DNA of 64,000 nt. Source: an uncultured Actinomycetes bacterium (GTDB lineage Bacteria > Actinomycetota > Coriobacteriia > Anaerosomatales > PHET01). Shown piece after piece: positions 41,333-64,000 of this stretch. The position numbers were made by a program, and so were the translations under genes. The stretch spans positions 58,793 through 122,792 of the forward strand of contig CAVOYK010000004.1 of NCBI GenBank assembly GCA_963700665.1. Direction: 5' to 3'. The notes below the pieces were generated by a model. The model was not told the DNA's origin. It saw only the letters and a list, made by a program, of their open reading frames with translations, and did no database searches. Position 1 is the stretch's first letter, and each line of letters begins with the position of its first letter.

Positions 41333-41334
41333 CG

Positions 41335-47724: not shown

Positions 47725-49086
47725 GTGTCCACAGATAAGACCACACCGCGCAGGATAGTCGTGATGGGGGCAGCTGGGCGTGACTTCCACGACTTTCTCG
47801 TTGCGTTGCGAGACGACCCCGCCATCGAGGTAGTGGCGTTCACCGCGACCCAGATTCCCGGAATCGACGATCGTCGCTTGCCCCCCGTCCTTGCTGGGCC
47901 CCGCTACCCGCAAGGCATCCCCATTCGACCCGAGTCCGAGCTCACCCAGATCATCGCCAACGACTCGATCGACGAGGTCCTGTTCGCCTACAGCGATATC
48001 GCTCACGTTGATCTGATGCACAAGGCGTCGCTGGTTCTGGCGGCAGGTGCCGACTTTCGCATCGTCGGCCCCACGTCGAGCATGGTGCGCTCGGTCAAGC
48101 CTGTCATCAGCGTCTGCGCCGTGAGGACAGGCGTTGGCAAGTCGGGTATCTCGCGACGCGTCTTCGAGCGGCTGCGTGAGAGAGGCGTTCGAGCGGTCGA
48201 TATCCGGCACCCCATGCCCTACCGCGACCTGACCGCGATGCGGGTGGAACGCTACGCGAGCATCGAGGACCTCGACCGGCTGGGCGTCACCGTCGAGGAA
48301 CGCGAAGAGTACGAGCACCTCGTCAACGTCGGGGCCGTCGTGATGGCAGGAGTCGACTACGAGGCGATCTTGCGCGAGGCCGAGAAGGAGGCCGACGTCA
48401 TCGTGTGGGACGGCGGCAACAACGACTGGCCGTTTTACGCAAGCGACCTCGAGATCGTCGCGCTCGACCCCCATCGCCCCGGCCACGAGCGCGCCTACTT
48501 CCCCGGAGAGGTGAACTTCTTGCGCGCCAACGTCCTGGTGATCAACAAGGTGAACACCGCCGAGAAGTCCGCGGTGGACGACTTGGTCGCGGCGGCCGCG
48601 ACGTACAACCCCGACGCGAGGCTCGTGCTCACCGACAGCGTGATCGAGGCGGACGACCTGTCTGCGCTCGCGGGCAAGCGGGTCCTTGCCGTCGAGGACG
48701 GACCCACCGTCACCCACGGCGGCATGCGCTACGGTGCCGCCGCTCTGGCGGCCAAACAGGCTGGAGCGGCCTCTCTGGTGGACCCGACGCCGTTCGCGGT
48801 GGGCTCGCTGAGAGACACCTACGACGCGTATCCGCACATGACCGACGTCTTGCCGGCGATGGGCTACTCGGCGGGTCAGCTCGCCGATCTCGCTGCAACG
48901 ATCGAGGCGACCGACGCCGAGGTCGTCGCTATCGGCACGCCGATCGATCTCGCACGACTCATCACGATCGACAAGCCGGTCGTGCGCGTGACCTACCGGG
49001 TGGCCGACACCTCCCACCCGGGCATCGACGACATCGTGGACGACTTTCTGGCCGCCCACGGGCTCGGAGACGGTGCAACCGGGTAG
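47725..49086 (+). CDS. cpgS: cyclic 2,3-diphosphoglycerate synthetase-like protein
   Basis: GTG 47725 after GAGGAGA. Strings: RIVVMGAAGRDFHDF, ISVCAVRTGVGKSGISR, VWDGGNNDWPF, VEDGPTVTHGGM. Confidence 0.65.
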   Translation: MSTDKTTPRRIVVMGAAGRDFHDFLVALRDDPAIEVVAFTATQIPGIDDRRLPPVLAGPRYPQGIPIRPESELTQIIANDSIDEVLFAYSDIAHVDLMHKASLVLAAGADFRIVGPTSSMVRSVKPVISVCAVRTGVGKSGISRRVFERLRERGVRAVDIRHPMPYRDLTAMRVERYASIEDLDRLGVTVEEREEYEHLVNVGAVVMAGVDYEAILREAEKEADVIVWDGGNNDWPFYASDLEIVALDPHRPGHERAYFPGEVNFLRANVLVINKVNTAEKSAVDDLVAAAATYNPDARLVLTDSVIEADDLSALAGKRVLAVEDGPTVTHGGMRYGAAALAAKQAGAASLVDPTPFAVGSLRDTYDAYPHMTDVLPAMGYSAGQLADLAATIEATDAEVVAIGTPIDLARLITIDKPVVRVTYRVADTSHPGIDDIVDDFLAAHGLGDGATG

Positions 49087-49109
49087 CCTGACTCGACTAC
49101 ACTGGGGAT

Positions 49110-49598
49110 ATGGAGACCCCCCAAGCCCCTCGCAACCTGCTCGACAAGCGCGTCAAGACAGCGTGGCGACTCCAGGCGCTTGCGTCGCTTGCGCCGCTGC
49201 TTCTTGGTGGCGTCGTCTTCGTCGCGGTCGCTCGGCGAGTCGGGGTCGGGACCACGGTGGCCGCGCTCGTTCTCGGCGGCATACTCGTCGCCATTCTGGC
49301 TGCCGAGACGTTCGTGCCTGAGGTCAGGTACCGGCGTTGGCGCTGGGAGGTGCGAGAGGAAGAAGTCCGCCTCCAAGAAGGGTTGATCGTCGTCTCTCAG
49401 ACGGTCATCCCCATGGTGCGGGTCCAGCACGTGGACACGGCGCAAGGTCCGATCATGCGCTCCCTCGGCCTGTCCGACGTCCACATCTGGACCGCAGCGG
49501 GCAAACACACGATTCCCGCGCTCGCAGACGCGCACGCCGAGCAACTCAGGGACCGAATCGCCGTACTCGCGAGGGTGACCGACGATGGCGGACTCTGA
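49110..49598 (+). CDS. ydbS: YdbS-like membrane protein with bacterial PH (bPH_2) domain
   Basis: Two N-terminal TM helices, then RWRWEVREEEVRLQEGLIVVSQTVIPMVRVQHVDTAQGPIMRSLGL. Confidence 0.7.
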   Translation: METPQAPRNLLDKRVKTAWRLQALASLAPLLLGGVVFVAVARRVGVGTTVAALVLGGILVAILAAETFVPEVRYRRWRWEVREEEVRLQEGLIVVSQTVIPMVRVQHVDTAQGPIMRSLGLSDVHIWTAAGKHTIPALADAHAEQLRDRIAVLARVTDDGGL

Positions 49599-51234
49599 AC
49601 TCTCGCGCACGCACCCACTCACGGTCGCTGTCCGCACCATGAAAGCGCTGTCACAGATGCTGTTGGCCCTGCTCGCGATGGCCTTCTTCGGCTCCTTTGG
49701 TGGAGGCGGGGCGCTCGCCGCGGTGGGAGTCGCCGGGGTCGCGGTCGTGCTCGCGCTCGTCTCGACGGGGTTCGCGTGGCTGAACTGGTGGTACTTCCGG
49801 TTCGGGGTCATCGGCCACGACCTGGTTGTCCTCGAAGGCTGGCTCGTGAAGAAGCGCCGAGCGATCCCGCTCGCGCGAGTCCAAGGCATCGACATCCGAG
49901 CGGATCTCGCCTCCCGGCTGCTGGGACTGGCCGACGTGGTCGTGCAGACGGCCGGCGGCGGATCAGGCGAGGCCGAGGCGCGTATCGGCTCGATTCCGCT
50001 GAGCCAAGCCGAGCAGCTGCGCGCCGACCTGCTCCACTGGCGTGACCGGGAGTCCCAGGTCGTCGACGGCGCAACCCCGAACCAGCCAGCAGCGGCTCCG
50101 ACCGAGGAGTCGGTCACCGGCCCGTCGCTGGTGGGGGCCGACCCCGTGAGTCGGATGAGCGATCTGCGCGGCGTGTTCGGCGAGAAAGAAGCGGACGCCC
50201 GCTCGGTAGACTTCGAATACAGACTGCCCTTCGGCAGACTCGTTCTGGCCGGACTGACCTCGAACGCTGTGCTGATCGCGCTGGCAGCTGGCGCGGGAGT
50301 GCTCTCGCAGTTCGCCGAGCTCTTCAGCGGGTTCACACAAGATGCGACCGACACTCTCTCCCGCATGGCCCTGCCGGCGCTGATTGCCCTTGGCTTCGTC
50401 GCGATGCTGTTCTTCGTCGGGATCTCGATCGCCGTGATAGTCGCCAGGGACTTCGGATTCACAGCCCGTCGCGTCCACGACCGCCTTGAGACCGAAGCCG
50501 GACTGACTGAGCGAAGGATGACGAGTCTTCCCATACGCCGCATTCAGGCAGTCCGGATCGAGCAGACAGCGTTGCGACGGATGCTGGGTTTCACGTCGAT
50601 CCATGCAGACACCGCGGGCTTCGGACGGAAAGAGGAACAGCAGTCGTCCACGGGGGCCGCCCTCGTGCCACTGGCCCGCTCGGCCGAGGTACGGCCCCTG
50701 CTCCACAAGCTGCTACCCGAAGCCGAGGACATGCCCACCACGTCCGGCCTCCCCCGTCGCGCCCGCCGGTTCTACATCTTGTGGCCGACCGCGCTGACCG
50801 CGACCGTGACGTGGGTCGTCGTCGCAGGCAGCACTTGGATCGTCGCGACAGCCGGCGAGATCGACGGGCTCGGTCCTATCGCGCCCGCCGTCGGCGCGGC
50901 CGCGGCACTGCTGCCGAGCGCCATCGTGGCGGCATCCCGAGCACTCGCGTGGCGCAACGCCGAGTTCGGTGCCGACGAGAACGCTCTGGCGATCAGGTGG
51001 GGGGTTCTGGGCAGGTACAGCGTGCGGCTGCCACGTGCGAGGATGCAGTCATTGACGGTGCGACAGTCGCCGTTCCAGAAGCGGGCGAAGCTGGCAACGA
51101 TCGTCGCTGCCTCGGTCGCCGGCTCCGGCGCGGCCTTCTACCGGGTTCGCAATCTCGACGTGGACGATGCGCGCGCTATCGAGCAGTGGTACTCGCCGAG
51201 CCCGGACTCGAGCGGCGGCATCGGAGCCGTGTGA
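49585..51234 (+). CDS. ydbT: YdbT-like membrane protein with three bPH_2 domains
   Basis: Intact 549-aa ORF overlapping ydbS by 14 nt. Repeated pattern: a TM pair, then ...RVQGIDIRADLASRLLGLADV / ...RIQAVRIEQTALRRMLGFTSI / ...RMQSLTVRQSPFQKRAKLATI. Confidence 0.7.
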   Translation: MADSELSRTHPLTVAVRTMKALSQMLLALLAMAFFGSFGGGGALAAVGVAGVAVVLALVSTGFAWLNWWYFRFGVIGHDLVVLEGWLVKKRRAIPLARVQGIDIRADLASRLLGLADVVVQTAGGGSGEAEARIGSIPLSQAEQLRADLLHWRDRESQVVDGATPNQPAAAPTEESVTGPSLVGADPVSRMSDLRGVFGEKEADARSVDFEYRLPFGRLVLAGLTSNAVLIALAAGAGVLSQFAELFSGFTQDATDTLSRMALPALIALGFVAMLFFVGISIAVIVARDFGFTARRVHDRLETEAGLTERRMTSLPIRRIQAVRIEQTALRRMLGFTSIHADTAGFGRKEEQQSSTGAALVPLARSAEVRPLLHKLLPEAEDMPTTSGLPRRARRFYILWPTALTATVTWVVVAGSTWIVATAGEIDGLGPIAPAVGAAAALLPSAIVAASRALAWRNAEFGADENALAIRWGVLGRYSVRLPRARMQSLTVRQSPFQKRAKLATIVAASVAGSGAAFYRVRNLDVDDARAIEQWYSPSPDSSGGIGAV

Positions 51235-51272
51235 CCGTGGTCACAGGCACCTAGCTCACCCCCCTCCCCAGC

Positions 51273-51908
51273 GTGGCACCGTGGGCCGATAGTCATGGCA
51301 GACGACCCAGATGCTCGGCTCTTCGGAGGAACAGCGTGTTGACAGCAACCAGTGGCCTGGCCACACTGCGCCCCCACTATGTGGGGGAGACTCGCGACCT
51401 GATGCGCATCCTGCTCAACGCGACGTCTGCCGCCGAGGCCAACCTCTCGCTCGAGGTTCTCAAGGACGTCGTGCCCGACAAGGCGCTGGTCGCAGCGTGC
51501 AACCTGCGCGAGGTGCTCTACGCTTTGCCCTCATCCCCGTTCGCGATGAGGGTGGACGAGGAGACACTGGCCCGGACAGCCGGCTTGGAGCGCAGGATCG
51601 CGGCGATGGGCAAGATGCTGCCAGACGGACTCGAACTCGTGGTCATGACCGCTGGCAACCTGGTACTTGACATCATCATCAGGCGTGACGGCGAGAAGTA
51701 CTTCTGGAACTCGGTTCCGGTGACCGACGACTTCGTCAACGGTGCCGTCCTCGACTTGCTCTTCGAGAGCGACCACCTGCTTCACGCCGCGATCGACCTC
51801 GCGGCGGCGATGGGAATCGTCTTCAACCCGAAGTTCTACCTCTCGCTCGAGGACTGGCATCTCGAATACGCATCCGATGTCTTCGAGGGACTTGGAGACC
51901 TCTTCTAG
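51273..51908 (+). CDS. hypothetical protein (start uncertain, possibly ATG 51402)
   Basis: Open frame with good GC3. No recognisable family. Confidence 0.35.
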   Translation: MAPWADSHGRRPRCSALRRNSVLTATSGLATLRPHYVGETRDLMRILLNATSAAEANLSLEVLKDVVPDKALVAACNLREVLYALPSSPFAMRVDEETLARTAGLERRIAAMGKMLPDGLELVVMTAGNLVLDIIIRRDGEKYFWNSVPVTDDFVNGAVLDLLFESDHLLHAAIDLAAAMGIVFNPKFYLSLEDWHLEYASDVFEGLGDLF

Positions 51909-52019
51909 CCCCCATCCGCCTCTCGCGACCGGGCATCGCACTCCCACTCCGCCCCCCAGGCAGCAACAGACGCAGCCGCCCGGCCGCGAGAGGCGCCCCC
52001 AAGCCAGAGTATCCAGTCC

Positions 52020-52638
52020 TCAGACGAACGCCTCGGTGCTCGCGGCGATAACACAGCCCGCCGCGCGCATCTCGTCGATCGCGGCGGCGCCGTCGCCTTG
52101 CGCCAAGTCCACCGCCCTGATCCCGTCTCGCACTACGACCATCTCGAGGCCAAGCCCCGCACCGTCCAGCGCGGTGTACTTGACGCAGTAGTCAGTTGCC
52201 AGACCCGACGAGCCACACCTCGCTGATTCCTGCATCGCTCAGGACAGCGCTCAGCCCGGTGTCCCTGCCGTGCCCGTTGTCGAAGAAGCCGCTGTAGCTG
52301 TCGATCTCCGGGTCGACGCCTTTGCGAATGACCGCATCGATCCGCGCGACGTCCAACCCCGAGTGGAACGAGGCCCCCGCCGAGTTCTGCACGCAGTGGT
52401 CGGGCCACAGGACCTGAGCCTGACCGCCCAGTTCGATCACGTCACCGACCGCAGACCCCGGATGGTTCGAGGCGAACGAGCCATGGGAGCTCGGGTGCCA
52501 GTCTTGCGTGGCGACCACCAGATCGAACAGGGGCGCGAGCTCGTTGGCGACGGGCACGATCGCGTCCCCATCGGCCACGGGAAGCGACCCGAACGGCATG
52601 AAGTCGTTTTGGACGTCGACGAGTATGAGAGCTCTCAT
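52020..52638 (-). CDS. pncA: nicotinamidase/pyrazinamidase (one frameshift ~52200)
   Basis: ORFs 52192..52638 (MRALILVDVQNDF ... TQDWHP..H.SF) and 52020..52235 (LATDYCVKYTALDG). Confidence 0.85.
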
Positions 52639-52642
52639 CCGC

Positions 52643-54112
52643 TCACCCCTTCTGGGCCGTGCGTGCCTCGGCGATCAGCGAAAGGCGCCGCTCTGAGAGC
52701 CCCTGCTCAAGTCCCACCTTGTACGTATGCGGGTTGAGGAAGCGCCGATGCGACGGGTCGAGTTCGGCGAGTTGCGACAGGGCGCGCGCCCTGATCTTGT
52801 CCAGCTCGGGCACAGAGTAGACGCGTCTGCCAGAGCGGACAACCGGTACGAGCAGCTCCTCGGACGGACAATCGGGGCCATACTCCGTCGACCTGAGCGG
52901 ATCCTCCGGATGGACCATGACCGCATGCGTACCGGGGTCGTGGATGGTGTCGTAGATCATGTCACCCGCCCAGCGGCCGTCGTCTCCGCGGTACCGACGC
53001 ACGCCCAAGACACCGGGCGTCGTCACCTTGGCGGTCTGCTCGGAGACCTTGACGCGGGGCTCCCAGAGTTCGCCGGGGCGCCGGATCGCAGAGAGCTTGT
53101 AGACCCCGCCCAGCGCCGGCTGGTCCCACGCGGTGGCGAGCTTCGTGCCCACTCCCCACACGTCTATCGCCGCACCCTGTTCCTTGAGCGATAGGATCAG
53201 GTGCTCGTCCAGCTCGTTGCTCGCCACGACCTTCGCGTCGGAGAACCCCCCCTCGTCGAGCACCTCGCGCGCGCGCTTCGAGAGCCAGGCAAGGTCACCC
53301 GAGTCGATTCGCACACCTATCAGCTCGTGCCCGCTCTCCCGCAGCTCGCGGCCCACCTCGACGGCGTGACGCACGCCTTCGACTGTGTCGTAGGTGTCGA
53401 CCAGGAACGTTGCGTTGTTCGGCATCGCGGCGGCATACGCCCGAAACGCCTCGAGCTCGGTGTCGAACGCCATCACCCAGGAGTGTGCGTGCGTGCCCGC
53501 TATCGGTACCCCGTAGCGCCTGCCCGCCAGAACGTTCGAGGTGGCCGAGCATCCACCGACGTACGCCGCACGGCTGGCCGACAGCCCGCCGTCGGGGCCC
53601 TGCGCACGCCGCAGGCCGAACTCGATGACCGGCGCTCCGTCGGCAGCGGTAAGACATCTCGACGCCTTGGTCGCCACGAGCGTCTGGAAGTTGATGATGT
53701 TGAGCAGTGCGGTCTCGACGATCTGACACACCGGTAGCGGACCAGCCACCCTGAGCAAGGGTTCGCGCGGGAAGACCACCGTGCCCTCCTCGACCGCGTC
53801 GACGTCGCAACAGAACCGCATCTCAGACAGCCACTCGAGGAACTCCGCCGAGAAGAGAGCACGTTCATCCGAGCCGGTCTGCTCGGCAAGGAAGGCGATA
53901 TCTTCATCGGCGAAGTCCAGCTCCTCCAGGTACTCGAGCGCTTGCTCCAGACCACAGGCGACGGCGTATCCGCCGCCGAACGGGTTCGACCTGAAGTACA
54001 GATGGAAACAACCCTCGGTCGTGTGGATGCCCGCATTCAAGTACGCCTGCGCCATGGTGAGCTGGTACAGGTCTGTGAGCATCGCGGGCGGCGTTGTACG
54101 GATCGCGGTCAT
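52643..54112 (-). CDS. pncB: nicotinate phosphoribosyltransferase
   Basis: Intact 489-aa ORF: TDLYQLTMAQAY, EFGLRRAQG, GTHAHSWVMAF, RIDSGDL. Confidence 0.9.
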   Translation of the reverse strand: MTAIRTTPPAMLTDLYQLTMAQAYLNAGIHTTEGCFHLYFRSNPFGGGYAVACGLEQALEYLEELDFADEDIAFLAEQTGSDERALFSAEFLEWLSEMRFCCDVDAVEEGTVVFPREPLLRVAGPLPVCQIVETALLNIINFQTLVATKASRCLTAADGAPVIEFGLRRAQGPDGGLSASRAAYVGGCSATSNVLAGRRYGVPIAGTHAHSWVMAFDTELEAFRAYAAAMPNNATFLVDTYDTVEGVRHAVEVGRELRESGHELIGVRIDSGDLAWLSKRAREVLDEGGFSDAKVVASNELDEHLILSLKEQGAAIDVWGVGTKLATAWDQPALGGVYKLSAIRRPGELWEPRVKVSEQTAKVTTPGVLGVRRYRGDDGRWAGDMIYDTIHDPGTHAVMVHPEDPLRSTEYGPDCPSEELLVPVVRSGRRVYSVPELDKIRARALSQLAELDPSHRRFLNPHTYKVGLEQGLSERRLSLIAEARTAQKG

Positions 54113-54488: not shown

Positions 54489-55325
54489 ATGTGCCAGTTC
54501 TGCGTGGAGCACGGTGAGGGCGAGCGCTGGTATCTGCAGGCGAAGAACTACGCGTTCGATCTGCAAAGCGACGTCAGGCGAAGCGCGTACATCGTCGACT
54601 TCATCTCCGGATTCTCCGACATGCGTGAAAACGCCATCACGTGGATGGAGCGCTTCGACCGCATCCCCGCACCGCTCTCGAGCATGGGCAAGTCGCTCAT
54701 CTCCAAGCGGCAACAAGCAAGCCACTTCGGCCAGCCGGTGCCGATCGAGGAGTGCGAGCGCATCTTTGACCTCGCCACCTCGATCACCGCCATCCCCTGC
54801 ATCTGCAGGATGCATGAGCCGGGACAGAAGGCAGACGAAGTCTGCGTCCTGGTCACCACGCAGCCGGTCGAGCCGCTGTTGCTCAAGGGGTTCGAGGGCT
54901 ACGACGACGGACCTGACCTCGACGACTTCAACACTCTTGCGAAAGAGCAGGCGATGGATCTGCTGCGCGAATGCGAACGCAACGGTCTCATGCACTCTGT
55001 GTGGACGTTCAAGACGCCTTTCACGGCTGCGATCTGCAACTGCAACCTGGAGAGCGGCTGCATGGCCATGAAGCTCACCGCTGGCTACGGTCTCAAGATC
55101 ATGTGGCGCGGTGAGTGGGTGGCACGACTCGACGCCGAACGCTGCACGCGGTGCGCACGCTGTGCGCGAACGTGCCCGTTCGGCGCCATAGAGGCCTCGC
55201 GGGCCGCGGTAGCGGTGCGAACACAACAGTGCTGGGGGTGCGGGGTCTGCCGCGCCGCCTGCCCGGAGAACGCGATCACCTTGCTCGACCGTCGAGAGGT
55301 CCCAGAGGTCGCGGCCGTCTGGTAG
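54489..55325 (+). CDS. 4Fe-4S dicluster ferredoxin-domain protein
   Basis: Intact 278-aa ORF. N-terminal MCQFCVEHGEGERWY. C-terminal CTRCARCARTCP and CWGCGVCRAACP. Confidence 0.65.
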   Translation: MCQFCVEHGEGERWYLQAKNYAFDLQSDVRRSAYIVDFISGFSDMRENAITWMERFDRIPAPLSSMGKSLISKRQQASHFGQPVPIEECERIFDLATSITAIPCICRMHEPGQKADEVCVLVTTQPVEPLLLKGFEGYDDGPDLDDFNTLAKEQAMDLLRECERNGLMHSVWTFKTPFTAAICNCNLESGCMAMKLTAGYGLKIMWRGEWVARLDAERCTRCARCARTCPFGAIEASRAAVAVRTQQCWGCGVCRAACPENAITLLDRREVPEVAAVW

Positions 55326-55332: not shown

Positions 55333-55884
55333 TCACTCCCGGTAGCGCGGTCTGCCCTCACGAAGCCAGCGAGTCGCCTCGGCCATCGAGCGAGGAGAGC
55401 GCGTGTAGTGATTCACGAGCCGCTTGCCGACTATGATCGCGGTTCCGCGCGCGATCTCTGATTCCTTGCCGCAGTAGGCCTTCTGCAGAGCGATGAGTCT
55501 TGCGAGTCCGTCGTCCTCTTGAGCGGTCCATACCTTGCGAACCCCCATTTGGACGAGCTCGCCGTGCGCGACAACGACGTCGTACTCCCACTCCCATCCG
55601 AGATCGCTGTGGTCCAACTGCTCCGCGAAGTCGCTCTCGAACAAGTCGGTGCCTTCATCCGCCCTCACCGCAGCGACCGCCTCCAGCAGTACCGCTGTGG
55701 CAACGACCTCTGCAACCGAGTCGGATTGGGCCCTGCGCAGCCACGCCCGGCGAGAGGCGCAGTCCACCTCGGCCAGTAGGCAGAGCGTCGAGATGCGCAC
55801 GCGGGCAACGGGGTGGGTCAGAGTGCGGTCGAACCAGTCCAGCGTGTTCGTGTCGGTCTCGTAGTAGGCCACGCCGCATCCCAT
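55333..55884 (-). CDS. hypothetical protein
   Basis: Intact 183-aa ORF. No family recognised. Confidence 0.35.
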   Translation of the reverse strand: MGCGVAYYETDTNTLDWFDRTLTHPVARVRISTLCLLAEVDCASRRAWLRRAQSDSVAEVVATAVLLEAVAAVRADEGTDLFESDFAEQLDHSDLGWEWEYDVVVAHGELVQMGVRKVWTAQEDDGLARLIALQKAYCGKESEIARGTAIIVGKRLVNHYTRSPRSMAEATRWLREGRPRYRE

Positions 55885-56058: not shown

Positions 56059-57123
56059 CTACTCGGTGGTCCGCCCGGTCGTCGCCCAGCTCACGTGGCA
56101 TCGCACGCAGTAGCCGGGCGCGTGGCACTCGAGGCAGTACTCGGCACCTTCGGTCTCGACCTCGACGTAGTGTTGCTTGACCCACGAGCCGATCATCGGG
56201 TCGTAGGCCTTGTGGTGACACATGCTGCATAGATCGGGCTTCTCGGTGTGGCACTGTGAGCACACGGCGCGATTCGATCTCCGCGAACGGCGGCGTGGCC
56301 CTCTTGGCCCTGCGACCAGTCCTCGGGATGAGGCATCTCGAGCCCGTGGCAGTCGTCGCAGAAGCTCTGCTGGTGGCACATGGTGCACTGCTTGGGGTCG
56401 CTCTTGCGCAGTTGACGCGTGCGTCCGGGGCATCCACGCCTTGTCCGTGTGCGACTCGGGGGTCAGCTCGTAGCCGGTCGGGTGACACAGGCTGCACGCC
56501 GCGGAGGCGTCGGGCTGCTCGGCGGTGCCGTGACACGTGAAGCACTGGCTCATCAGGGTCAGGGGCGTGCCGCGATCCTCGAGCGGGTGGGCGGTGCGGA
56601 CGTGACACGACACACACGACCCGTTGCGTTTCGCGTGCTCGACGTGGTTGATCTTGATGCGGAAGCCTGAGGTCGCCTTGCGGTTGGCGATCGTGACACT
56701 GGAGGCACACCGCGTCAGCCATCGGGGCGACGCCCGGGACCGGGCCGTCGACCGGATCGACGTAGTCACCGGAGGTGTGGGCGCGAACGTCGCGCGCGAG
56801 CAGCTTGCCCCTGTCCACCAGCCGCGCCGGATACGCATACCAAGGCCGTGGCGCTTGGTGGCATTGCACGCACTTGACGCCGGTGTGAGCCGACTGCTGC
56901 CAGCTCGCGGTCCTCGGCTTCATCTCGTGGCACGAGCCGCACAGACGGGGCGACGACGGTGACCGCATCGAACGCGATCACCAGCAGGACGAGACCCAGC
57001 GCTACGAAGGCGACTATGCGAAGCGTCGAATCGCGGCCGGTTCGGCGTGGGGCGATCGTCTGTCACCGGAGGAGTCGCCGAGCGTTCGCCGGCGTTCTGT
57101 GTGTCGGTCTGCTCTGGGTCCAT
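56059..57123 (-). CDS. NapC/NirT-like membrane-anchored multihaem cytochrome c, ~12 haems (many frameshifts)
   Basis: Fragments 56920..57123, 56766..56981, 56012..56968, 56059..56838 and 56193..56381. Classic NapC start: CGSCHEMKPRTASWQQSAHTGVKCVQCH. Further motifs: CLQCH, CVSCH, CFTCH, CSLCH, MCH, CDDCH, CSQCH, CSMCH, CLECH, CVRCH. Confidence 0.75.
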
Positions 57124-57138
57124 AGACCGTATTCTCGC

Positions 57139-57974
57139 CTACTCGACCGGCTTGAGCGACGGATCGAAGTTCTCTTGCGGCACCTCACCGTGACAGCGGA
57201 CGCAGAAGGCGCCGTCGTGGCACGCCTCGCAGTTGCGCCGCTGCTTGACCTGCTCACCGTGGACCGCGCGCCAGTCGTCCCCGTGTGACTGCGGACGCAG
57301 CGCGTGGCAGTCCGCGCACCAGTCCTCGGTCCACTTGTGACAGCTGTCGCATTCGGGGCTGGCGGCATCTTTCGGGTGGACGATCAGCCAGTCCTCGCGC
57401 CTGATGGCTATCGGGGGCGGCCTTCTGGGTGTGACATGCCGTGCACGTGTCCTTCGCGGTGTCGCCATCGTGGCACCGGAGGCAACCAGCCATCGTCGGC
57501 AGATGCTTGCCCGAGGGATTCAACTCGTGCACGAGGTAGTCATGGCATTCGACGCACTCCATCTTGAGAATGGTGACGTGCGCGCGATGCGGGATCTGCA
57601 GGTCGCCCTTGGGCGAGACGCTGCGCAGGTCGTTGTGGCACTCGAGGCACGCCTCGTTGGTCGGCGTCGCGAAGACACTCGGGCTCTCGGAGCGCAGCAC
57701 GAGCGACAGGTAGAACTCGCCCACCATCCGCGCTCGATACGCGCCTGAGGAAGCGGCCGGGGCGAGACGTGGCATCCTTCGCAGCCGACCTCGGCGTGCG
57801 CTGAGGTCGACCACGGCTCGTACTGGGCGGCAAGTGCGGGCATCCGCCCGAAGAACCCCGGCTGCATCGTGAGGAGCGATGGGGACGCCCACGAGCAGCA
57901 GCACGACGCGCCACAACGGCGATGACGCGCGCAAGACGCCGGCGCCTGGCGGAAGCGGCCGTGTCGCCCGCCAT
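57139..57974 (-). CDS. membrane-anchored multihaem cytochrome c, 9 CxxCH (frameshifted)
   Basis: Fragments of ORFs 57540..58013 (MAGDTAAS), 57520..58620 (CEGCH), 57254..57934 (CLECH, CVECH, CLRCH, CTACH) and 57139..57468 (CDSCH, CADCH, CEACH, CVRCH). The ATG overlaps the upstream TGA by 1 nt. Confidence 0.7.
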
Positions 57975-58750
57975 CAGTGACACTCCTCGCAGAACTTCTC
58001 TCCACCGTGGCACACGAGACAGCCGTCGCCGCGCTCGTTGGCAAGTGGCCCGTGATCCGCCTTCCAGTTGCCCACGTGCGATGCCGGGCGCTTCTCATGG
58101 CAGTCGGCGCAGTAGTCCGGCGTCCAGTCGTGGCACTCGCCGCAGTCCTGCGTCTCGGCCATCGCCCCGTGGACCTCCAGCCAGTCGCTCTTGGTGTGAG
58201 ACTCAGGCGTCTGCTTGCCCGTGTGGCAATCGAAGCATTCGTTGCTGGCCTTGTCGCCGTCGTGGCACTGCTCGAGACAGGACTCCATCTCGGGCCGGTT
58301 GAAGCCACGGCTGTTGAGCGAGTGCACGAGGTCCTTGTGGCAGGTCCTGCACTCCATCTCGCAGCACCTCGACATGGGCCTTGTGCGGTATGAGCAGATC
58401 CCCGCTTGGCCCGACGCGCCGATAGCTCGTGTGGCACTTCTGGCATGCGGCCCGACTCGGAGCCTGCAGCAGGTTCGTGTCGTCGGGCCCGCTGAGCAGT
58501 TGGGAGTAGAAGGCCGGCACCGACTTGGCGGCGAACGACACGAATCCACCCACCCCTGGCTCGACGTGGCATTCGATGCAGCGAGATGCGCGAGTGGGTC
58601 GAGGTCGCCCAATGATCCATTCGCTGGCCCGAGCGCTGGATAGCGCCGGTAGTAGTCGGGCTGCAGCACCGAGACGACCGGAAGCAGCAGCACCACGAGC
58701 ACGATGACGGCCAGCCCGAGCGCTATCCACTTGAGGAGCCTCGGAGACAC
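57974..58750 (-). CDS. membrane-anchored multihaem cytochrome c, ~9 haems (frameshifted); paralogue of 57139..57974
   Basis: ORF 57974..58750 (TM WIALGLAVIVLVVLLLPVV; CRTCH, CLEQCH, CFDCH, CGECH, CADCH, CLVCH, CEECH*) plus the middle part from ORF 58203..59237 (CIECH, CQKCH). Confidence 0.7.
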   Translation of the reverse strand: MSPRLLKWIALGLAVIVLVVLLLPVVSVLQPDYYRRYPALGPANGSLGDLDPLAHLAASNATSSQGWVDSCRSPPSRCRPSTPNCSAGPTTRTCCRLRVGPHARSATRAIGASGQAGICSYRTRPMSRCCEMECRTCHKDLVHSLNSRGFNRPEMESCLEQCHDGDKASNECFDCHTGKQTPESHTKSDWLEVHGAMAETQDCGECHDWTPDYCADCHEKRPASHVGNWKADHGPLANERGDGCLVCHGGEKFCEECH

Positions 58751-59771
58751 CTACTCCATCTCCTTGAACTGATCGTGGCACTCCTCGCACCACGGCTCCT
58801 CGTGACACGCCAGACAGCGGGGATCGTCGACCTTCGTCGCCTGCTTGCTGTGTCGGCCGATCCAGGTGTCGGTCGAGCCGTGGAACGCAGGACGCTGCAG
58901 GTGACACTCGTCGCATTCGCCCTCCGACTGGTGGCACTTCAGGCACTGCGAGACGTCCTTGAGCGCCTCGGTGCCGTGATATCGGCTGGTCCACTCCGGC
59001 TTGACGTGGAGCTCCTCGATGCTCTTGCGCTGACCTCGATTCGGCAGCCCCGTGAACTCGGGCGTCTCGCCGGTCGTGTGACACTGCTGACACTGCGCGA
59101 CGGTGTGGCACGACTCGGGGCACGCCGCCTTGCCGGTGTCGCTTGACCACCTGCGGGTGCTCCGTCTTCCACTCCTCGCCGGACTCGTGCAGGACGTGAT
59201 GGCAGTTGAAGCACTGTTCGGTCTGTCTTGGTCCCAACGTGGCAGCCGTAGGAGACGCACACGCCCGAGAAGGGCATCTCCTTGTGCTTGGTCATGTAGG
59301 TCTCGAAGTGCGCGGTCCACTTGTGGCAGTCCACGCAGTCGCGCGACTCGCTGGCGACGCGCGTGTGCGCCGGGTGCGGGATGCGCTCGGTTCTCTCGGC
59401 GATGTAGGCCCAGTCTCTTCGTGGCAGGCCAGGCACGCCTCACGGCGTGGGCGGCCCGAACTTGAAGTACGCCGGAAGCGGCTCGCTCGGTGACAAGACT
59501 GCGATAGAAGTCGCCGACCAGAGCGACACCGTTTTGCGAGCGGCTCGGTCTCATGACACGAGCGACACCCGATTCCCTCGTGCGCCGAGTTCTCCAGGTT
59601 GACATAGCGCCGATTCAGCAGGTGATAGCGCGAGAAGAAGTTCGACGTCGAGGTCGCCACGAGCGGCAGCACGACGGTGGCGGCGATCACCAGGACGAGC
59701 CCGAACGCGACCAGTGCTGCAATGAGAGGCCAGCGCCTGCGGGCACCCGGCTTGTCCTCTTGTGCGCTCAC
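58751..59771 (-). CDS. membrane-anchored multihaem cytochrome c, ~11 haems (frameshifted)
   Basis: ORF 59292..59771 (TM LIAALVAFGLVLVIAATVVLPLV; CRSCH, CLACH), 58939..59436 (CVDCH, CVSYGCH), 58203..59237 (CFNCH) and 58751..59605 (CPESCH, CQQCH, CLKCH, CDECH, CLACH, CEECH). Confidence 0.7.
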
Positions 59772-59778
59772 AGACCGA

Positions 59779-61047
59779 TCACCGCGCCTCTAGGGCCGGC
59801 TCGGCGGGGCCTTCGGGGAGAGCTGATTCGTGAGCGCTCCCATGCGCATCCTCGGGCACCACGAGCGGCAGGACCTTGGCCGCGACTGTCACGATCAGCA
59901 CCCCGATCGCCAGGATCATCAGCGCGATCAGCACCTCGGTCAGACTCGGCACGTACGGTGGGGCGTACTGGCCGAGCGGGTTGTAGACGATTCCCATCGA
60001 CATGAGCGAGTAGCGCTTCAGGAAGACGGCCACGACATACATCGCCGCTCCCGTGATCTGCACGGCAGGCAGGTGGCGGGTCTTGCGCCGGGAAAGCAAC
60101 AGCGAACGCGCTCACGCCCAGGATCAGCACCGGCAGAGAACATGAATGCGTAGCCGCCCGGTGAAGAACTCGGCGAACCGCATCGTGTGACCCGGCTTGG
60201 CCGACGTCGGCCAGAAGACGGTCAGGATCTCTACCAGGAGCAGGAACAGGTCGATGATGATGACCGTCGCAAGCAGGGTGGTAAGACTCCTGAACATGCT
60301 CGACGTGAACTTCAAGATGCCGATAGTGCTGGAACGATGTAGGCGACGAGCATGCAGTACCGCGATCCCCGAAGCTGTCGCCGAGGTCAGGAAGATCGGC
60401 ACCATCATCGCCGTGTTCCACAGCTCGCGGGACTTGTTCATCGACAGCACGAACGCCGTCGTCGTGTGCAGGTAGATGGCGAGCGGCAGCGCGATCAGCG
60501 TCATCCGGAACGCCAGCTTCTCTCCGCCCTTGCCCGTGATCAGGATCCACAGATCGACGAAGCAGATGATCATGTAGAGGTTGGCCGCGCTACCTGTGTA
60601 GATGAACGGCGACGTCGGGTTGGGCGTCAGCAGCATCCATACCGCCCGCCACGGCCGCTCCATGTCGGTGACGATGCCGAGCAGCGCCATCATCACGAAC
60701 ACGCCCGCAAGCAGCACCGCCAGTCGCGACAGCGGAGCGTACTGATGGGCGCCGAAGAGGTGGACGCTCGCGTAGACGACGAGCCCGCCGGCCGCCAGGC
60801 CGACGTAGTACATGTAGTTCACGAACCACAGACCCCACGGGTAGGCGTCACGCATCGCCATGACTGAACCGCCATTGGACAGCGCCGCGGCCCACGCCAT
60901 GACGCCCATGAACAGCACGGTCAGCAGCAGCGAGACGAACGCCCAGTAGCGCGGGCCCGCCGTTCGGAGCTTGCCGACGGTGAAGTCGATGCCGATGAAA
61001 CGCTTCACGCCGGGTTCGGGTGTAGTGACGATAGCCATGTCGATCAC
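59779..61047 (-). CDS. NrfD/PsrC-family polytopic membrane subunit (quinone-interacting) (one frameshift ~60110)
   Basis: ORFs 60124..61047 and 59779..60099. About 8-10 TM helices. Strings: YWAFVSLLLTVLFMGVMAW, PWGLWFVNYMYYVGLAAG. The start overlaps the NrfC-like stop (ATGA). Confidence 0.8.
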
Positions 61048-61990
61048 CCCACATACCAGATCATGGGGTCATTACCGAGCTCTTCTTTCAGGCGCCAGAC
61101 GCGGCGCGTCTTCAGCAAGATGGAGACCTCGCTCTCTGGATCGTTCAGATCGCCGAACTTGCGCGCGCCGACCGGGCAGGCCTCCGTGCAGGCCGTGGTC
61201 TGGCCGTTGCGCGTGCGCTGGACGCAGAACGTGCACTTCTCGACGACGCCCGCCTTCTCGTGAAGCGGCACCTCGCGGGTTCACTTCGTCCTCGGGAACC
61301 TCCGGCTCGACCCAGTTGAAGTGACGCGCGTCATACGGGCAGGTGATCATGCAGTTGCGACAGGCGATGCACTTGTCGTAGTCGATCACGACGATGCCGT
61401 CGGGCTCCTTCCACGTGGCCTTGACGGGGCACCCGTACACGCAGGTGGGCTTCGCGCAGTGCATGCACTGGACCGGCAGGTACCACTTGTCCTGCCTGCC
61501 GGCCTCCTCGTAGTCGAGGTTCGCGTGCTCGATGTCGACCTTGCCGTTCTCCATCTCGAGCACCTGGATGTAGGTGAAGCCGGACTCGCGGCCGATGTTG
61601 TTCTCCTTGACGCAGGCGTAGACGCACCGGCGACAGCCGATGCACGCCTTGACGTCGATGACCATCGCCCCACTTCTGGTCGCCGGCGCGGGTCAGCGTA
61701 GCTAGACCGGCTTGCCGGGGTAGTTGACCGGCTGGTCCTCCTCGGCGGCCCACTCGATGCCGCCCTCGGCGGATGACTCCTCCGCCTCGGATGCTCCCGG
61801 CGGCGCCAGGAAGCGCGGTCATGACCGCAGGCACGACACCTGCGGCCACCAGGCCGGCGGCGGCACCGATTCCTTCAAGGAAGCGGCGGCGGGACAGCGT
61901 CATGCCCTCTGGCGCAGTCGCGCCCTCGGGTGCCTTGAGCTCGTCGCGCACGTCGAGCGACGCGCGTGTGGATTCGGTCTTGTCGCTCAT
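61044..61990 (-). CDS. NrfC/PsrB/HybA-type periplasmic 4Fe-4S cluster protein with Tat signal (frameshifted; two stops in the linker as assembled)
   Basis: Tat signal MTLSRRRFLEGIGAAAGLVAAG in ORF 61331..62605. ORF 61072..61665 gives MVIDVKACIGCRRCVYACVKEN, CMHCAKPTCVYGCP, CIACRNCMITCP. ORF 61044..61271 gives CTFCVQRTRNGQTTACTEACP. One extra G before the ATG restores DQKWGMVIDVKAC, a typical junction for this family. Confidence 0.75.
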
Positions 61991-62747
61991 GACTTGCGCC
62001 TTCCCAGAGTAAGGAAACCGATGATGACCAGCACGATGAAGAAGCCGATAGCCGAGATCACGATCAGCGAGGTCGGCGTGTAGACGGGTGGCGGAGCGGG
62101 TGGCGAGGCCATCGGCTTGAACGGCTCGCGCGGCCATACGGCGCGAACCTCGATGCCGGTGCCCTGGAAGGGCGGAAGCGCCTCGACGTAGATCCACGAC
62201 GGCGTGTGCGGGTCGTGGCAGCCGGCCGCCGAGCACTTCGGCGAGTCGCTTGCCGTGGATCCCGAGCTCCCAGTCGCGGTACTTCTCGAAGTGGCACCGC
62301 TGACATACGCGAGAGACCTCTCCGGTGATGTCGACCAGGGTGCCGTCGGGCAGCAGGAGCTTGCCGGGGTTTCGCGACGGGTCGTCGTGACAGGCCAGGC
62401 ACGCCTTGTCGCCCTGCCCGAGTATGTCGTGCACTTCGAGTTCGATCTCGTGCTTCTCGAAGTCGTTGGGAAGGGGCTTGGTCGGCTCGCCGTTGGCGTC
62501 GAGCGTCACCGGATGGCAGTCCGTGCAGGGGTAGAACGCCGCCTCCCCGGTCGCCGAAAGTCCGGCATGCGCGTGCGCGGGCCAGAACAGAAGGGCACAA
62601 CCCAAAACGATGAATGAGATGGCGAACGCCGCGCGCGACAGTGAACGGGACGGCTGCCGGTAGCCGGACGTACTGGAACAAAGGCGTCGCTTCGATGGCG
62701 CTCACACCACCTTGTGGTCGGAGGGTCGCTGCAATCGTAGTAGACAC
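61987..62747 (-). CDS. small periplasmic tetrahaem cytochrome c with C-terminal TM anchor (frameshifted)
   Basis: Signal-like AFAISFIVLGCALLFWPAHAHA. Motifs: CTDCH, CLACH, CQRCH, then in a third frame KCSAAGCHDPHTPSW. C-terminal TM LIVISAIGFFIVLVIIGFL, then GRRKS*. The TGA overlaps the next ATG. Start uncertain. Confidence 0.65.
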
Positions 62748-62791
62748 TATCAGGCGTCCTCAGCACGCCTATTCGCCTAGTATTACCGAAA

Positions 62792-62808
62792 TGTTAGGGT
62801 TGTGTTAG
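62792..62808. promoter_or_regulatory. direct repeat TGTTAG-N5-TGTTAG (11-bp phasing), candidate response-regulator box
   Basis: Lies in the lower-GC divergent intergenic region between the cytochrome/NrfCD operon and the OmpR-type regulator gene. Confidence 0.3.
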
Positions 62809-62880
62809 CTGCAATTGAGACTCGTTCGGCTATCCTCGGTTCTCGGAAGAACCACTCCTCCTCCAGGGAGCACACAGCCG

Positions 62881-63565
62881 ATGAAACGCGTGCTGGTCGT
62901 CGACGACGAAGAGTCGATCCTCAAGGTGGTCGACTACGCTTTGACCGAGGCCGGCTACGAGGTGCACACCGCCGGCGACGGGCTCGGCGCAGAGTTCATG
63001 CTCGACTCAGGTCAAGCCAGACCTCGTCATCCTCGACGTGATGCTGCCGGGCAAGTCCGGACTCGACATCGCCAAGGACCTGCGAGCCCACTCGAGCGTC
63101 CCGATCATCATGCTGTCCGCACGCGGCGACGAGGTCGACCGGATCCTCGGGCTTGGAGTTCGGTGCCGACGACTACGTGACCAAGCCGTTCTCTCCTCGA
63201 GAACTCGTGAGCAGGGTCAAGGCCATCTTGCGCCGAGTGGAGGGCGGCCAGGCCGAGAACGCCTGCATCGAGGTCGGCGACCTGGAGATCGACACGCTCT
63301 CCCGCCAGGTGAAGCTCGCCGGCCAGCACATACACCTCACGACCTCCGAGTACGGCATCCTGCTCCACCTGGCGCAGACATCCCGGCAAGGCGTACTCGC
63401 GCCAGGCGATCCTCGAGGCGCTGTGGGACGAGTCCCCCGTCGGCGACGAGCGCGCGGTCGACGTGCACATCCACAACATCCGCGAGAAGATCGAGGAAGA
63501 CCCCAAGAGCGCCGGTCTACATCCTGACCGTGCGCGGCTACGGCTATCGGCTCAGAGAGCCCTAG
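62881..63565 (+). CDS. OmpR/PhoB-family response regulator (frameshifted)
   Basis: MKRVLVVDDEESILKVVDYALTEAGYEV, DLVILDVMLPGKSGLDI, GADDYVTKPFSPRELVSRVKAILRR, YILTVRGYGYRLREP*. Spread over ORFs 62815..63180, 63038..63565 and 63153..63527. Confidence 0.8.
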
Positions 63566-63569: not shown

Positions 63570-64000
63570 ATGGCACTCCGCATACGCGAGCGCACGGGCG
63601 TCCGCGTGCGCGACCCTGATCGCCGCCGCGGATCCATCCGACTGTGGCAGACCGAGCTGTTCGTCGTCGTCATCGTCGTGGCGATGCTCGTCTTGTCCGG
63701 ATCGCTTTCCGCGGGCCTCAGGTCCACGCTCACGAATCTGACCGAGACGACCGAGCTGCGCAACGCCTCGGCGCTCGCGCAGCGCCTCGAACCGGAGCTG
63801 CCGCTGACCGTGACGGGCACGGCCCCGATACGCGACGTGGTCGACCGAGTACCGCGACATCTACGGCGGCGGCATCTGGGTCTACGACCGCGACGGCACG
63901 CTGCTCGAGTCGTCGTTCGACATACAGCCCAGGCGACCCCGTGCTCGAGAGCGCTCGCCTCGGCGCGCTCAACGAGCAGGCCGCCTACGCGGCGAGCGAC
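63570..64000 (+). CDS. sensor histidine kinase, N-terminal part (runs off window)
   Basis: ATG 63570 lies 5 nt after the regulator stop. TM ELFVVVIVVAMLVLSGSL follows, then a periplasmic-type segment. Identified only by position and topology. Confidence 0.5.
   Translation, partial: MALRIRERTGVRVRDPDRRRGSIRLWQTELFVVVIVVAMLVLSGSLSAGLRSTLTNLTETTELRNASALAQRLEPELPLTVTGTAPIRDVVDRVPRHLRRRHLGLRPRRHAARVVVRHTAQATPCSRALASARSTSRPPTRRA

Follow-up and report, generated by a model that had tools for sequence, protein, structure and literature searches.

Respiratory complexes with an NrfD-type membrane subunit have been reviewed as a group that comprises Nrf, Psr, alternative complex III (ACIII), Dms, Hyd-2, Arr, Ttr, Qrc, Sre, Nhc, Dsr, Mcc, Fqo, and Soe (PMC8076601). 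There are several described systems in which membrane modules connect quinones with c-type cytochromes. First, NhcABCD, HmcABC(DEF), and QrcABCD of Desulfovibrio link cytochromes c to menaquinone, with Qrc and Nhc described as cytochrome:quinone oxidoreductases (PMC8076601). Second, Shewanella SirCD is an NrfCD-type quinol dehydrogenase that is able to replace CymA (PMC11434368). Third, Cbc4 of Geobacter sulfurreducens, i.e., CbcSTU (GSU0068-0070), is a proposed menaquinol:cytochrome oxidoreductase for extracellular electron transfer (bioRxiv 10.1101/2025.04.14.648717; PMC11434368); no phenotype has been assigned to Cbc4, and its role is itself unproven (bioRxiv 10.1101/2025.04.14.648717). Here, we describe an operon on the minus strand of a 64-kb stretch of DNA with 62-69% G+C, from contig CAVOYK010000004.1 of an uncultured Actinomycetes bacterium; we refer to this whole stretch as “the window”. 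The operon runs from ~62747 to 56059 and encodes a tetrahaem cytochrome, an NrfC-like iron-sulfur (FeS) protein, an NrfD-family membrane subunit, and four further anchored multihaem cytochromes. Our favored interpretation, held with moderate confidence, is that this is an intact respiratory operon of OPB41/Anaerosomatales-type Coriobacteriia encoding a quinol:multihaem-cytochrome oxidoreductase that would feed extracellular electron transfer.

None of the NrfD complexes listed in the review has the subunit set of this operon (PMC8076601), and in the literature on Coriobacteriia, OPB41, and Gram-positive extracellular electron transfer we found no description of the gene set. For the cultured Anaerosomatales, the published description goes no further than “putative quinol-oxidising multihaems” (PMC9686372). 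The scores of the operon proteins fall below all curated cut-offs for the subunits of described complexes. This agrees with a preliminary description of this DNA, made from the sequence alone, which had not recognized the composition as that of a described complex. The novelty implied there extends to the full seven-subunit set and not to its core: genes 1-3 have the same kinds of subunit as Cbc4, and resemble DsrJOP, NhcABC, and SirCD. Therefore, the operon is a variant of the NrfCD quinone-cytochrome module family rather than a new kind of system.

An open reading frame (ORF) listing combined with frameshift-aware alignment yields seven co-directional minus-strand genes between 62747 and 56059. 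Gene 1 encodes a tetrahaem cytochrome c (61987..62747, with the start between 62747 and ~62640), gene 2 a protein with four [4Fe-4S] sites that is NrfC/DsrO-like and carries a twin-arginine translocation (Tat) export signal (61044..61990), and gene 3 an NrfD-family integral membrane subunit (59779..61047). The remaining four genes encode N-terminally anchored cytochromes with 11 haem motifs (gene 4, 58751..59771), 9 (gene 5, 57974..58750), 9 (gene 6, 57139..57974), and 12 (gene 7, 56059..57123). Cytochromes are the products of 5/7 genes; all are c-type by Pfam/NCBIfam matches and motifs, and all are membrane-anchored according to motifs and hydropathy. Together they contain 45 haem motifs (41 CXXCH and 4 CX3/4CH), with 4, 11, 9, 9, and 12 per gene. 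The density of these motifs is also apparent at the nucleotide level: the pattern TGYN6TGYCAY occurs 109 times in the window versus 3.6 +/- 2.0 times in shuffled sequence, with 41 occurrences inside the operon and all except one of the 109 on the minus strand. The genes are tightly packed. Genes 1 and 2 overlap through ATGA (61990-61987), genes 2 and 3 through GTGA (61047-61044), and genes 5 and 6 through TGATG (57976-57972), and the stop and start codons of genes 4 and 5 abut (TAG|GTG at 58751/58750). Neither the operon nor the gene tables of three related loci (L001-L003) contain a molybdopterin-family gene, and no catalytic subunit is encoded in the operon, with catalytic-cytochrome family models in NCBIfam giving no match. 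The preliminary description had proposed seven co-directional genes, an NrfC-like subunit of the Tat type, an NrfD-like subunit, a C-terminally anchored tetrahaem protein, ~45 haem sites, and the lack of a molybdopterin subunit, and all of this stands. The same is true of the junctions it gave at 61987..61990, 58750/58751, and 57972..57976; only the fourth, at 61044..61047, is GTGA and not the ATGA reported.

In the unrepaired sequence, the region from 56.0 to 62.8 kb consists of overlapping minus-strand ORF fragments and contains no long unbroken gene, and these fragments already match the NrfD, 4Fe-4S dicluster, and cytochrome c7-type domains of Pfam. The frame with the best third-position G+C changes every ~200 bp, and haem motifs fall in all three minus-strand frames. 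Therefore, the genes are interrupted by frameshifts. We aligned the proteins of the L001 locus, which lies on a complete 2.5-Mb chromosome, to the window with a frameshift-aware dynamic programme. After this repair all seven genes are full length, with ~30 frameshifts corresponding to ~25 extra and 5 missing single bases. Genes 1-7 have 2 (at ~62672 and ~62248), 5, 5, 6, 3, 4, and 5 frameshifts, respectively, and no stop codon remains in any of the seven. The best segments of the repaired genes are 60-81% identical to L001 and 74-88% identical to the closest relative, L060. The repaired copy retains 45/45 haem motifs, 16/16 cluster cysteines, and 125/127 of the NrfD columns that are invariant in 65 orthologues.

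Several observations bear on the origin of the frameshifts. The two closest relatives, L060 and L068, have ~20 and ~17 frameshifts, again with no stops, at positions that coincide neither with those in the window nor with each other. Genes that fall into several tblastn segments come mostly from long-read “MFD” metagenome-assembled genomes (MAGs) with contigs named contig_N; short-read MAGs mostly have one segment per gene, and dozens of them hold intact copies. No homopolymer or motif context is apparent at the frameshift sites. The neighboring regulator and kinase genes are likewise frameshifted. Because there are no stops, the motifs are retained, the frameshifts of relatives are at other positions, and split genes are mostly confined to the “MFD” MAGs, we conclude that the broken frames are errors of long-read assembly or polishing and that the operon is biologically intact. 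The alternative is that the genes are decaying, true pseudogenes of a lineage that has abandoned the pathway. What speaks for decay is the concentration of the frameshifts, with ~30 of them in 6.7 kb (~4.5 per kb at 56-64 kb) as opposed to the unbroken 392-670-aa ORFs of the housekeeping genes serA, ilvC, ilvB, and ilvD at 23.8-32 kb of the same contig, together with the fact that the other haem-rich region, at 0-19 kb, is frameshifted as well. However, 30 true indels would be expected to be accompanied by nonsense and motif-destroying substitutions, and the repaired copy has neither in-frame stops nor losses among its haem motifs and cluster cysteines; the differently placed frameshifts of the two closest relatives and the intact short-read copies likewise contradict decay, which we regard as barely credible. 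The possibility of true pseudogenes, which the preliminary description had named as fatal to its proposal, can therefore be set aside with frame repair.

Genes 1-3 make up the core of the operon. Gene 1 has an N-terminal signal peptide and, by hydropathy, a C-terminal hydrophobic helix followed by basic residues. Its four haem motifs are CTDCH, CLACH, CQRCH, and CSAAGCH, the last being of the CX4CH type, and the four haems and four distal His are conserved in 35 orthologues. It matches Pfam Cytochrome_C7 and Paired_CXXCH_1, scores 18.4 against a cut-off of 24.1 for Cytochrom_NNT, and matches no curated NCBIfam family, the DsrJ model included. Gene 2 encodes a protein of 302 aa with a Fer4_11 match of 74 bits (Pfam), 16 Cys that make up four cluster motifs, and a Tat motif, SRRRFLEG, conserved in 61/63 orthologues; it thus has both the four Cys motifs and the Tat signal of an NrfC-type four-cluster ferredoxin. 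Its top curated models are DsrO (194.4 bits versus a cut-off of 200), QrcC, ArrB, TtrB, and NrfC, and among structures in the PDB it matches PsrB (E=1e-33) and the FeS domain of ActB (E=4e-32).

Gene 3 lacks cofactor motifs and matches PF03916 (NrfD) with 110.5 bits against a cut-off of 25.8. Its best NCBIfam model is DsrP, at 141.3 bits and a cut-off of 350. The AlphaFold2 (AF2) model of an orthologue that is 82% identical (P0002; predicted template modeling score [pTM] 0.81) has ten long helices. In Foldseek comparisons, it superposes on ActC of four ACIII structures with template modeling (TM) scores of 0.77-0.80 over ~410 columns (0.79 for the best Foldseek match), compared with 0.56-0.59 for ActF, and the eight-helix PsrC is also a poorer match than ActC. 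At the sequence level, gene 3 and ActC are marginally similar (E=7e-4 to 6e-3). With its profile match, its polytopic topology, and its fold match to ActC, ActF, and PsrC, gene 3 has the features of the NrfD/PsrC family. An exhaustive search of 1.84 billion representatives showed that the orthologous group of gene 3 corresponds to one full-length 50% cluster; in the whole search, only 41 representatives have E<=1e-30. The next full-length relatives are 35-40% identical, and ten of these neighbors also score best on DsrP, all below the cut-off. Because of this single cluster, the distance to the next relatives, and the sub-cut-off DsrP scores of the neighbors, gene 3 is placed by its sequence in an unnamed DsrP-like branch.

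Genes 4-7 are paralogous, with 24-44% identity among them; the highest value, 44%, is that of gene 5 and gene 6. A single N-terminal helix with basic residues ahead of it is present in each, and the haem domains are therefore predicted to lie outside. The four proteins differ at the position of the first haem. In gene 7, the N-terminal 160 residues form a full NrfH/NapC-like tetrahaem domain that includes a CGSCHEM first-haem motif. The motif CXXCHXM is the quinol-site haem signature of NrfH, as seen in the NrfHA structure of D. vulgaris. The NCBIfam NrfH model matches gene 7 from position 5 to 138 of 138 with 56 bits, below the equivalog cut-off of 134; Pfam Cytochrom_NNT (PF03264) matches with 46.1 bits versus 24.1, and a profile of the gene 7 orthologues matches NrfH (2j7a_C) with E=1e-8. 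Among the orthologues the CXXCHEM motif is conserved, and 12/12 haem motifs are invariant in 60 of them. By these matches, gene 7 belongs to the NapC/NirT/NrfH family and is not an NrfH equivalog. The match of gene 4 to Cytochrom_NNT (29.6 bits; cut-off 24.1) is confined to the C-terminal part of this profile, to which genes 5 and 6 have no direct match; genes 4-6 align to gene 7 at 24-31% identity. In genes 4-6, FFxRY or YYRRY stands at the aligned position of the first-haem motif, and the subsequent W..S.H....CXXCH region is retained. We therefore take these three genes to have lost the NrfH-type first haem. The earlier characterization of genes 4-7 as “four NapC-like proteins” is correct in the sense of NapC/NirT descent, which for genes 4-6 is probable, and overstated in the sense of quinol dehydrogenases, given that only gene 7 has an NrfH-type first haem.

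Conservation of the haem numbers of genes 4-7 (11, 9, 9, and 12) extends to 45-54 orthologues of each gene. For genes 1 and 4-7, the ratios of conserved non-motif His to haems are 4/4, 11/11, 8/9, 8/9, and 10/12; genes 4-7 also have one or more conserved Met. Because the numbers of conserved His nearly equal the haem counts, genes 4-7 fit chains of six-coordinate electron-transfer haems, with the first haem of gene 7 as the one obvious exception. This pattern bears on whether the operon might encode a reductase for a soluble substrate, e.g., a sulfur or nitrogen oxyanion, in which one of the multihaem cytochromes is catalytic, as in NrfABCD or MccACD. Such an arrangement has precedents, since NrfCD modules serve NrfA and MccA (PMC8076601), and one cultured relative respires sulfur and thiosulfate (PMC9686372). 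However, the operon cytochromes contain no CXXCK, no CX15CH, and no Otr/HAO-type signature, no catalytic-cytochrome family model matches them, and the near equality of distal His and haems leaves no obvious open coordination site besides the NrfH-type first haem. A catalytic role for one of the cytochromes is thus very improbable.

How close does the operon come to each of the described systems? The likeness to Cbc4, which we compared by composition only, lies in the combination of an anchored tetrahaem cytochrome c with bis-histidine (bis-His) ligation, a subunit with 4x[4Fe-4S], and an integral membrane subunit in one operon. There are several differences. CbcS is N-terminally anchored and has a haem core of the NapC/NirT type, whereas gene 1 is C-terminally anchored and falls below the Cytochrom_NNT cut-off (see above). 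Cbc4 lacks the four extra anchored multihaem cytochromes, and its host is a diderm with soluble periplasmic carriers; the operon described here has an NrfH-like head within the same operon and belongs to a monoderm host. Two monoderms, Thermincola potens and Carboxydothermus ferrireducens, are similar, as judged from published descriptions, in having membrane-tethered and wall-associated multihaems and NapC-like putative quinol-oxidising multihaems; the descriptions of their chains include no NrfCD module, whereas the operon has one.

Like genes 1-3, DsrJOP combines a cytochrome c with an FeS protein exported by Tat and an NrfD protein of ten helices, on the outer face of the membrane, and the curated models that score best for genes 2 and 3 come from this module. 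Whereas gene 1 encodes a tetrahaem protein, DsrJ has three haems. Membership in DsrMKJOP was rejected: DsrO is borderline and DsrP far from its threshold, both scores lying below the cut-offs given above; there are no DsrM, DsrK, or other dsr genes in the operon or in the L001-L003 tables, and the DsrJ model does not match gene 1. Nhc, Hmc, and Qrc likewise combine an outward-facing multihaem cytochrome with NrfC-type and NrfD-type subunits. Their cytochromes are soluble-type, c3-like proteins with nine, sixteen, and six haems, respectively, whereas those of the operon are all membrane-anchored. The scores exclude QrcABCD (QrcC 155 versus 400; QrcD 59 versus 570), whose molybdopterin-like QrcB is also missing from the locus tables, and Hmc/Nhc (HmcB 105 versus 420; HmcC 50 versus 550). 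ACIII is similar in the superposition of the gene 3 model on ActC, in the match of gene 2 to the FeS domain of ActB, and in being a quinol:cytochrome c system without b-haem. The operon is not an ACIII: it has a single NrfD protein and no ActF, gene 2 (302 aa) is without the B1 domain, and there is no pentahaem ActA, no ActD, and no monohaem ActE.

Two further comparisons concern the delivery of electrons to multihaem cytochromes. In SirCD and in E. coli NrfCD, an NrfC/NrfD pair delivers electrons to periplasmic multihaem cytochromes. The operon does not belong to the NrfCD systems proper (NrfC 117 versus 378; NrfD 21 versus 348), and the partner catalytic cytochromes NrfA and SirA are absent from it. 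Gene 7, with its N-terminal helix and a tetrahaem domain that matches NrfH from end to end and includes CXXCHXM, resembles NrfH, CymA, and other NapC/NirT proteins, as well as the ImcH and TorC types. It differs from NrfH types in having eight further haems; genes 4-6 differ in the lack of the first haem, and none of the four genes lies beside a reductase partner.

Taken together, these features suggest the following pathway. Genes 1-3 would form a membrane module at the outer face of the cytoplasmic membrane. The gene 3 product, a 10-helix NrfD subunit with an ActC/DsrP-like fold, would exchange electrons with the membrane quinone pool; the gene 2 product, after Tat export, would relay them via four [4Fe-4S] clusters; and the C-terminally anchored tetrahaem protein of gene 1, with all four haems predicted to be bis-His, would pass them on. 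The 41 haems of genes 4-7, almost all of them bis-His according to the conserved His, may provide a membrane-proximal haem conduit. In addition, the NrfH-type first haem of gene 7 (CXXCHXM), the only one in the operon, could serve as a second, independent entry point for quinol. The net reaction would be the oxidation of (mena)quinol with electrons moving outward. Candidate onward carriers are further multihaem cytochromes, e.g., those encoded at 0-19 kb of the same contig, and the end acceptors would presumably be extracellular or in the cell-wall space, e.g., Fe(III). The outward direction is favored because there is no catalytic partner, the fold of gene 3 is ActC-like, gene 7 has an NrfH-type head, ~67 more haem motifs are found on the contig, and there is an Fe(III) reducer within the order; this cultured member is an obligate Fe(III) reducer with 17 multihaem cytochromes (PMC9686372).

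Several points weigh against this interpretation. Respiratory quinones were “not detected” in either of the cultured Anaerosomatales strains (PMC9686372). The Fe(III)-reducing isolate Parvivirga has been reported to be without FeS and anchor subunits of the complex iron-sulfur molybdoenzyme (CISM) type (PMC9686372), so that Fe(III) reduction by this isolate does not depend on a CISM-type module. The nearest profile relatives, DsrOP and QrcCD, are thought to run toward quinone reduction or cytoplasmic sulfite reduction, and the direction in which electrons flow cannot be read from homology. Co-transcription signals are the only basis on which we infer that genes 4-7 join genes 1-3 in a single complex. 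For a gene 7 orthologue, AF2 with a 60-sequence alignment gave a poor model (predicted local distance difference test [pLDDT] 65.8), to which Foldseek found no matches in the PDB. Lastly, the density of indels is very uneven along the contig, with no explanation found; local polishing failure or strain heterogeneity is our guess.

The same complex might work in reverse and, in the manner of Qrc or Nhc, act as a cytochrome c:quinone reductase that carries electrons from outside into the quinone pool; possible sources would be extracellular donors, partner cells, Fe(II), or a hydrogenase or formate dehydrogenase connected via cytochromes. The best profiles of genes 2 and 3, DsrO/DsrP and QrcC/QrcD, and the DsrP-like scores of the NrfD neighbors at 35-40% identity are in line with such a direction, as is the oxidoreductase function of Qrc and Nhc themselves (PMC8076601), and the cultured relatives use H2 or formate (PMC9686372). 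On the other hand, every one of these scores is under its equivalog cut-off, the nearest fold is that of the quinol-oxidising subunit ActC, NrfH-type domains such as that of gene 7 are known quinol dehydrogenases, and the hydrogenase of the relatives brings its own cytochrome b anchor (PMC9686372). We therefore consider inward electron flow unlikely, if still worth serious attention.

The failure to detect quinones points to a different alternative, in which the NrfD subunit is a quinone-free, proton-coupled membrane anchor, as proposed for the organohalide-respiration complex of Dehalococcoides, which is itself free of quinones. Both cultured Anaerosomatales strains lack detectable quinones (PMC9686372), and there is a published precedent for a quinone-independent NrfD-like subunit (PMC10772276). 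However, low biomass may account for the non-detection, the relatives have genes for a group 1i hydrogenase that is quinone-linked and has a cytochrome b (PMC9686372), and gene 7 retains the NrfH quinol-site haem motif. A quinone-free NrfD subunit is, in our estimation, decidedly improbable.

More speculatively, all seven proteins might form one monoderm membrane supercomplex of 45 haems, in which two types of quinol dehydrogenase, the ActC/DsrP-like NrfCD module and the NrfH-like cytochrome, are joined as non-redundant entry points, which we think improbable as a whole. If such a supercomplex exists, one possibility is that the two entry points form a coupled pair, i.e., a redox loop that cycles quinones and in this way conserves energy while electrons are transferred to the outside. 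Another possibility, suggested by the undetected quinones of the cultured relatives, is that the NrfD module is quinone-independent and proton-coupled. In either case, energy conservation in Gram-positive extracellular respiration would take a new form.

A candidate regulator of the operon is a two-component system encoded divergently from it. An OmpR-family response regulator gene lies at 62878..63565 on the plus strand. It has at least 4 frameshifts, and tblastn with the intact regulators of L001 and L003 gives 70-90% identity spread over frames 1, 2, 3, 1, and 2; its orthologues contain Response_reg and Trans_reg_C. The 5' part of the cognate histidine kinase gene follows at 63612..64000 on the same strand, where it leaves the window; it has at least 2 frameshifts, and its orthologues contain HAMP, HisKA, and HATPase domains. 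Between the regulator gene and gene 1, on the minus strand, are four direct-repeat boxes (62770..62807) that read TAACA, TAACA, TAATA, and GAATA with exact 11-bp spacing. The boxes are kept in position and sequence across 43 unique loci with diverged flanks, and the core of box 2 has an information content of 2.0 bits per position, compared with 1.4-1.7 bits in box 1. What the otherwise diverged intergenic regions have in common is CCGCTAACAcAACCCTAACA..ACGgcAAT(N7)CGAAT, i.e., the four TAACA-like boxes at 11-bp spacing. The boxes are followed by a -10-like element, TGATAGTGT, and both are conserved in the 43 loci. In the window, the corresponding TGnTAGTGT element at 62744..62752 (minus strand) is a candidate extended -10 promoter. 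A consensus scan of 55.3-63 kb found no promoter-like site, and terminator-like sites were at chance level.

Tandem boxes beside an extended -10 are the classic layout of OmpR/PhoB-type sites. The locus has both the winged-helix regulator and the tandem repeats of ~11 bp upstream of the operon that characterize an OmpR/PhoB-type regulon, with binding predicted. The box array is a likely candidate binding site of the OmpR-type regulator, and because of this layout control of the operon by the divergent two-component system is plausible; the system would set expression through the four TAACA-type boxes. The link to a divergent two-component system that the preliminary description made is strengthened by synteny in 32 loci and by the conserved box array. 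The same region bears on the start of gene 1. The GTG at 62747 sits within the conserved -10-like element TGATAGTGTC, and this position is in frame with the ORF in only 12/42 relatives. For both reasons the GTG is probably not the start codon, and the true start of gene 1 probably lies somewhat downstream. A separate, 25-nt element, GGTGGTGTGAGnGCCATAGAnGCGA, is present at 62711-62687 in the minus sense and is conserved even at wobble positions. Read as GGTGGTGTGAGCGCCATCGAAGCGA at 62687-62711, it recurs in 33 loci; its distance downstream from the -10-like element is 30-45 nt, and in two relatives a stop codon directly precedes it. This element could be part of a leader RNA, or it could comprise a ribosome-binding site and a start region whose start codon is unusual.

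The operon is conserved well beyond the window. With the largest NrfD fragment as query, 376 proteins were retrieved, the best intact ones being 415-420 aa long, 72-83% identical, and from Coriobacteriia/Actinobacteria MAGs. On the contigs of these relatives, a divergent response regulator gene, a histidine kinase gene, and a gene for a 190-aa membrane protein are found ahead of the operon, and all genes are intact; the products are a cytochrome of 222-251 aa, an FeS protein of 301-303 aa, an NrfD protein of 415-420 aa, and four cytochromes of 257-348 aa. For a census, the NrfD alignment was scanned against one genome per species (GTDB r232). This yielded 65 loci, all from MAGs and nearly all labelled Coriobacteriia, Actinomycetota, or Actinomycetes, with a few bins labelled otherwise; 50/65 loci were long enough to judge. 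By our count, 47 of these 50 have the gene set of the window. Genes 1-7 are colinear in 37/50 of these informative loci, and 32 of the 37 have the divergent regulator and kinase. The two cultured species, Anaerosoma tenue and Parvivirga hydrogeniphila, are not among the 65 genome matches. One locus-bearing MAG, KA18, was classed by its authors as “Coriobacteria (OPB41)” (PMC8470020). Twelve of the loci (L011, L012, L016, L019, L020, L028, L031, L037, L041, L047, L057, and L067) are from bins named “uncultured Eubacteriales” or “Candidatus Bathyarchaeia”, with NrfD identities of 63-80%; the operon itself is plainly actinobacterial, and such labels are probably provisional or wrong, or the contigs mis-binned.

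Other architectures occur among the 50 loci. In 8/50 (L035, L037, L039, L040, L044, L047, L050, and L052), gene 7 is upstream of gene 1 and the regulator follows gene 6; the relocated gene 7 is divergent in some relatives and co-directional in others. L068 (1/50) is rearranged, with a gene-7-like match upstream of gene 1. Two loci, L048 and L053 (2/50), have no gene 7 nearby, and L029 (1/50) is reduced to genes 1-4. Finally, L065 (1/50), with an NrfD that is 40% identical, combines a trihaem cytochrome, an FeS protein, and NrfD with a single 690-aa, 7-haem anchored cytochrome. Because of these variants, we view a core with anchored cytochromes as a modular theme of which the seven-gene form is the common one.

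The remainder of the window contains a second haem-rich region and a set of ordinary housekeeping genes. The haem-rich region (39-18723, minus strand) has 67 CXXCH-coding motifs over all three frames and Pfam matches to c7-type and c3-type cytochromes, with weak matches to MtrC/MtrF domains; it is interrupted by an aconitase-family gene at 9.1-10.4 kb. The preliminary description had combined the operon with the island at 1-23.7 kb into a complete path from the quinone pool to the cell surface; the island does contain these ~67 haem motifs, and a location of its products at the surface would be hypothetical. Three near-identical direct repeats (94-100%) lie within it, i.e., 14451-15529 and 17475-18556, 1316-1537 and 6798-7019, and 7818-8027 and 16254-16463, with spacings of ~3.0, 5.5, and 8.4 kb. 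These repeats go back to recent duplication of cytochrome genes, or they are an artefact of the assembly. The stretches 23810-37000 and 38507-54112 encode serA, an aminotransferase, ilvC, ilvB, ilvD, leuB, leuC (split), an rlmL-like methyltransferase, an NYN-domain protein, an FMN reductase, two bacterial-PH-domain proteins, and nicotinate phosphoribosyltransferase. No menaquinone-synthesis or cytochrome-maturation genes were found by Pfam among the 20 ORF segments at 23.8-55.9 kb. Just downstream of gene 7 are two genes with intact ORFs: one, on the plus strand (54489-55325), encodes a protein of 278 aa whose C-terminal domain is a 2x[4Fe-4S] ferredoxin, and the other, on the minus strand (55333-55884), a 183-aa protein with no family match. 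Both are missing from the L001-L003 gene tables, where other genes follow gene 7, and for this reason they are probably not part of the operon.

The analysis demonstrates that a heavily frameshifted long-read contig can be read reliably via frame repair against intact relatives, and the operon read in this way adds a new combination of subunits to the NrfCD family. It is present in roughly 60 species-level genomes and is conserved down to haem number and regulator boxes. Because of this distribution and tight conservation, it is probably a core respiratory device of the OPB41/Anaerosomatales group. These Coriobacteriia are widespread in metagenomes from the subsurface, sediments, wetlands, and soils, yet they have barely been cultured, and their respiration is largely unknown. 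The operon provides a concrete candidate, open to testing, for the membrane step that has been missing from extracellular electron transfer in an actinobacterial monoderm.

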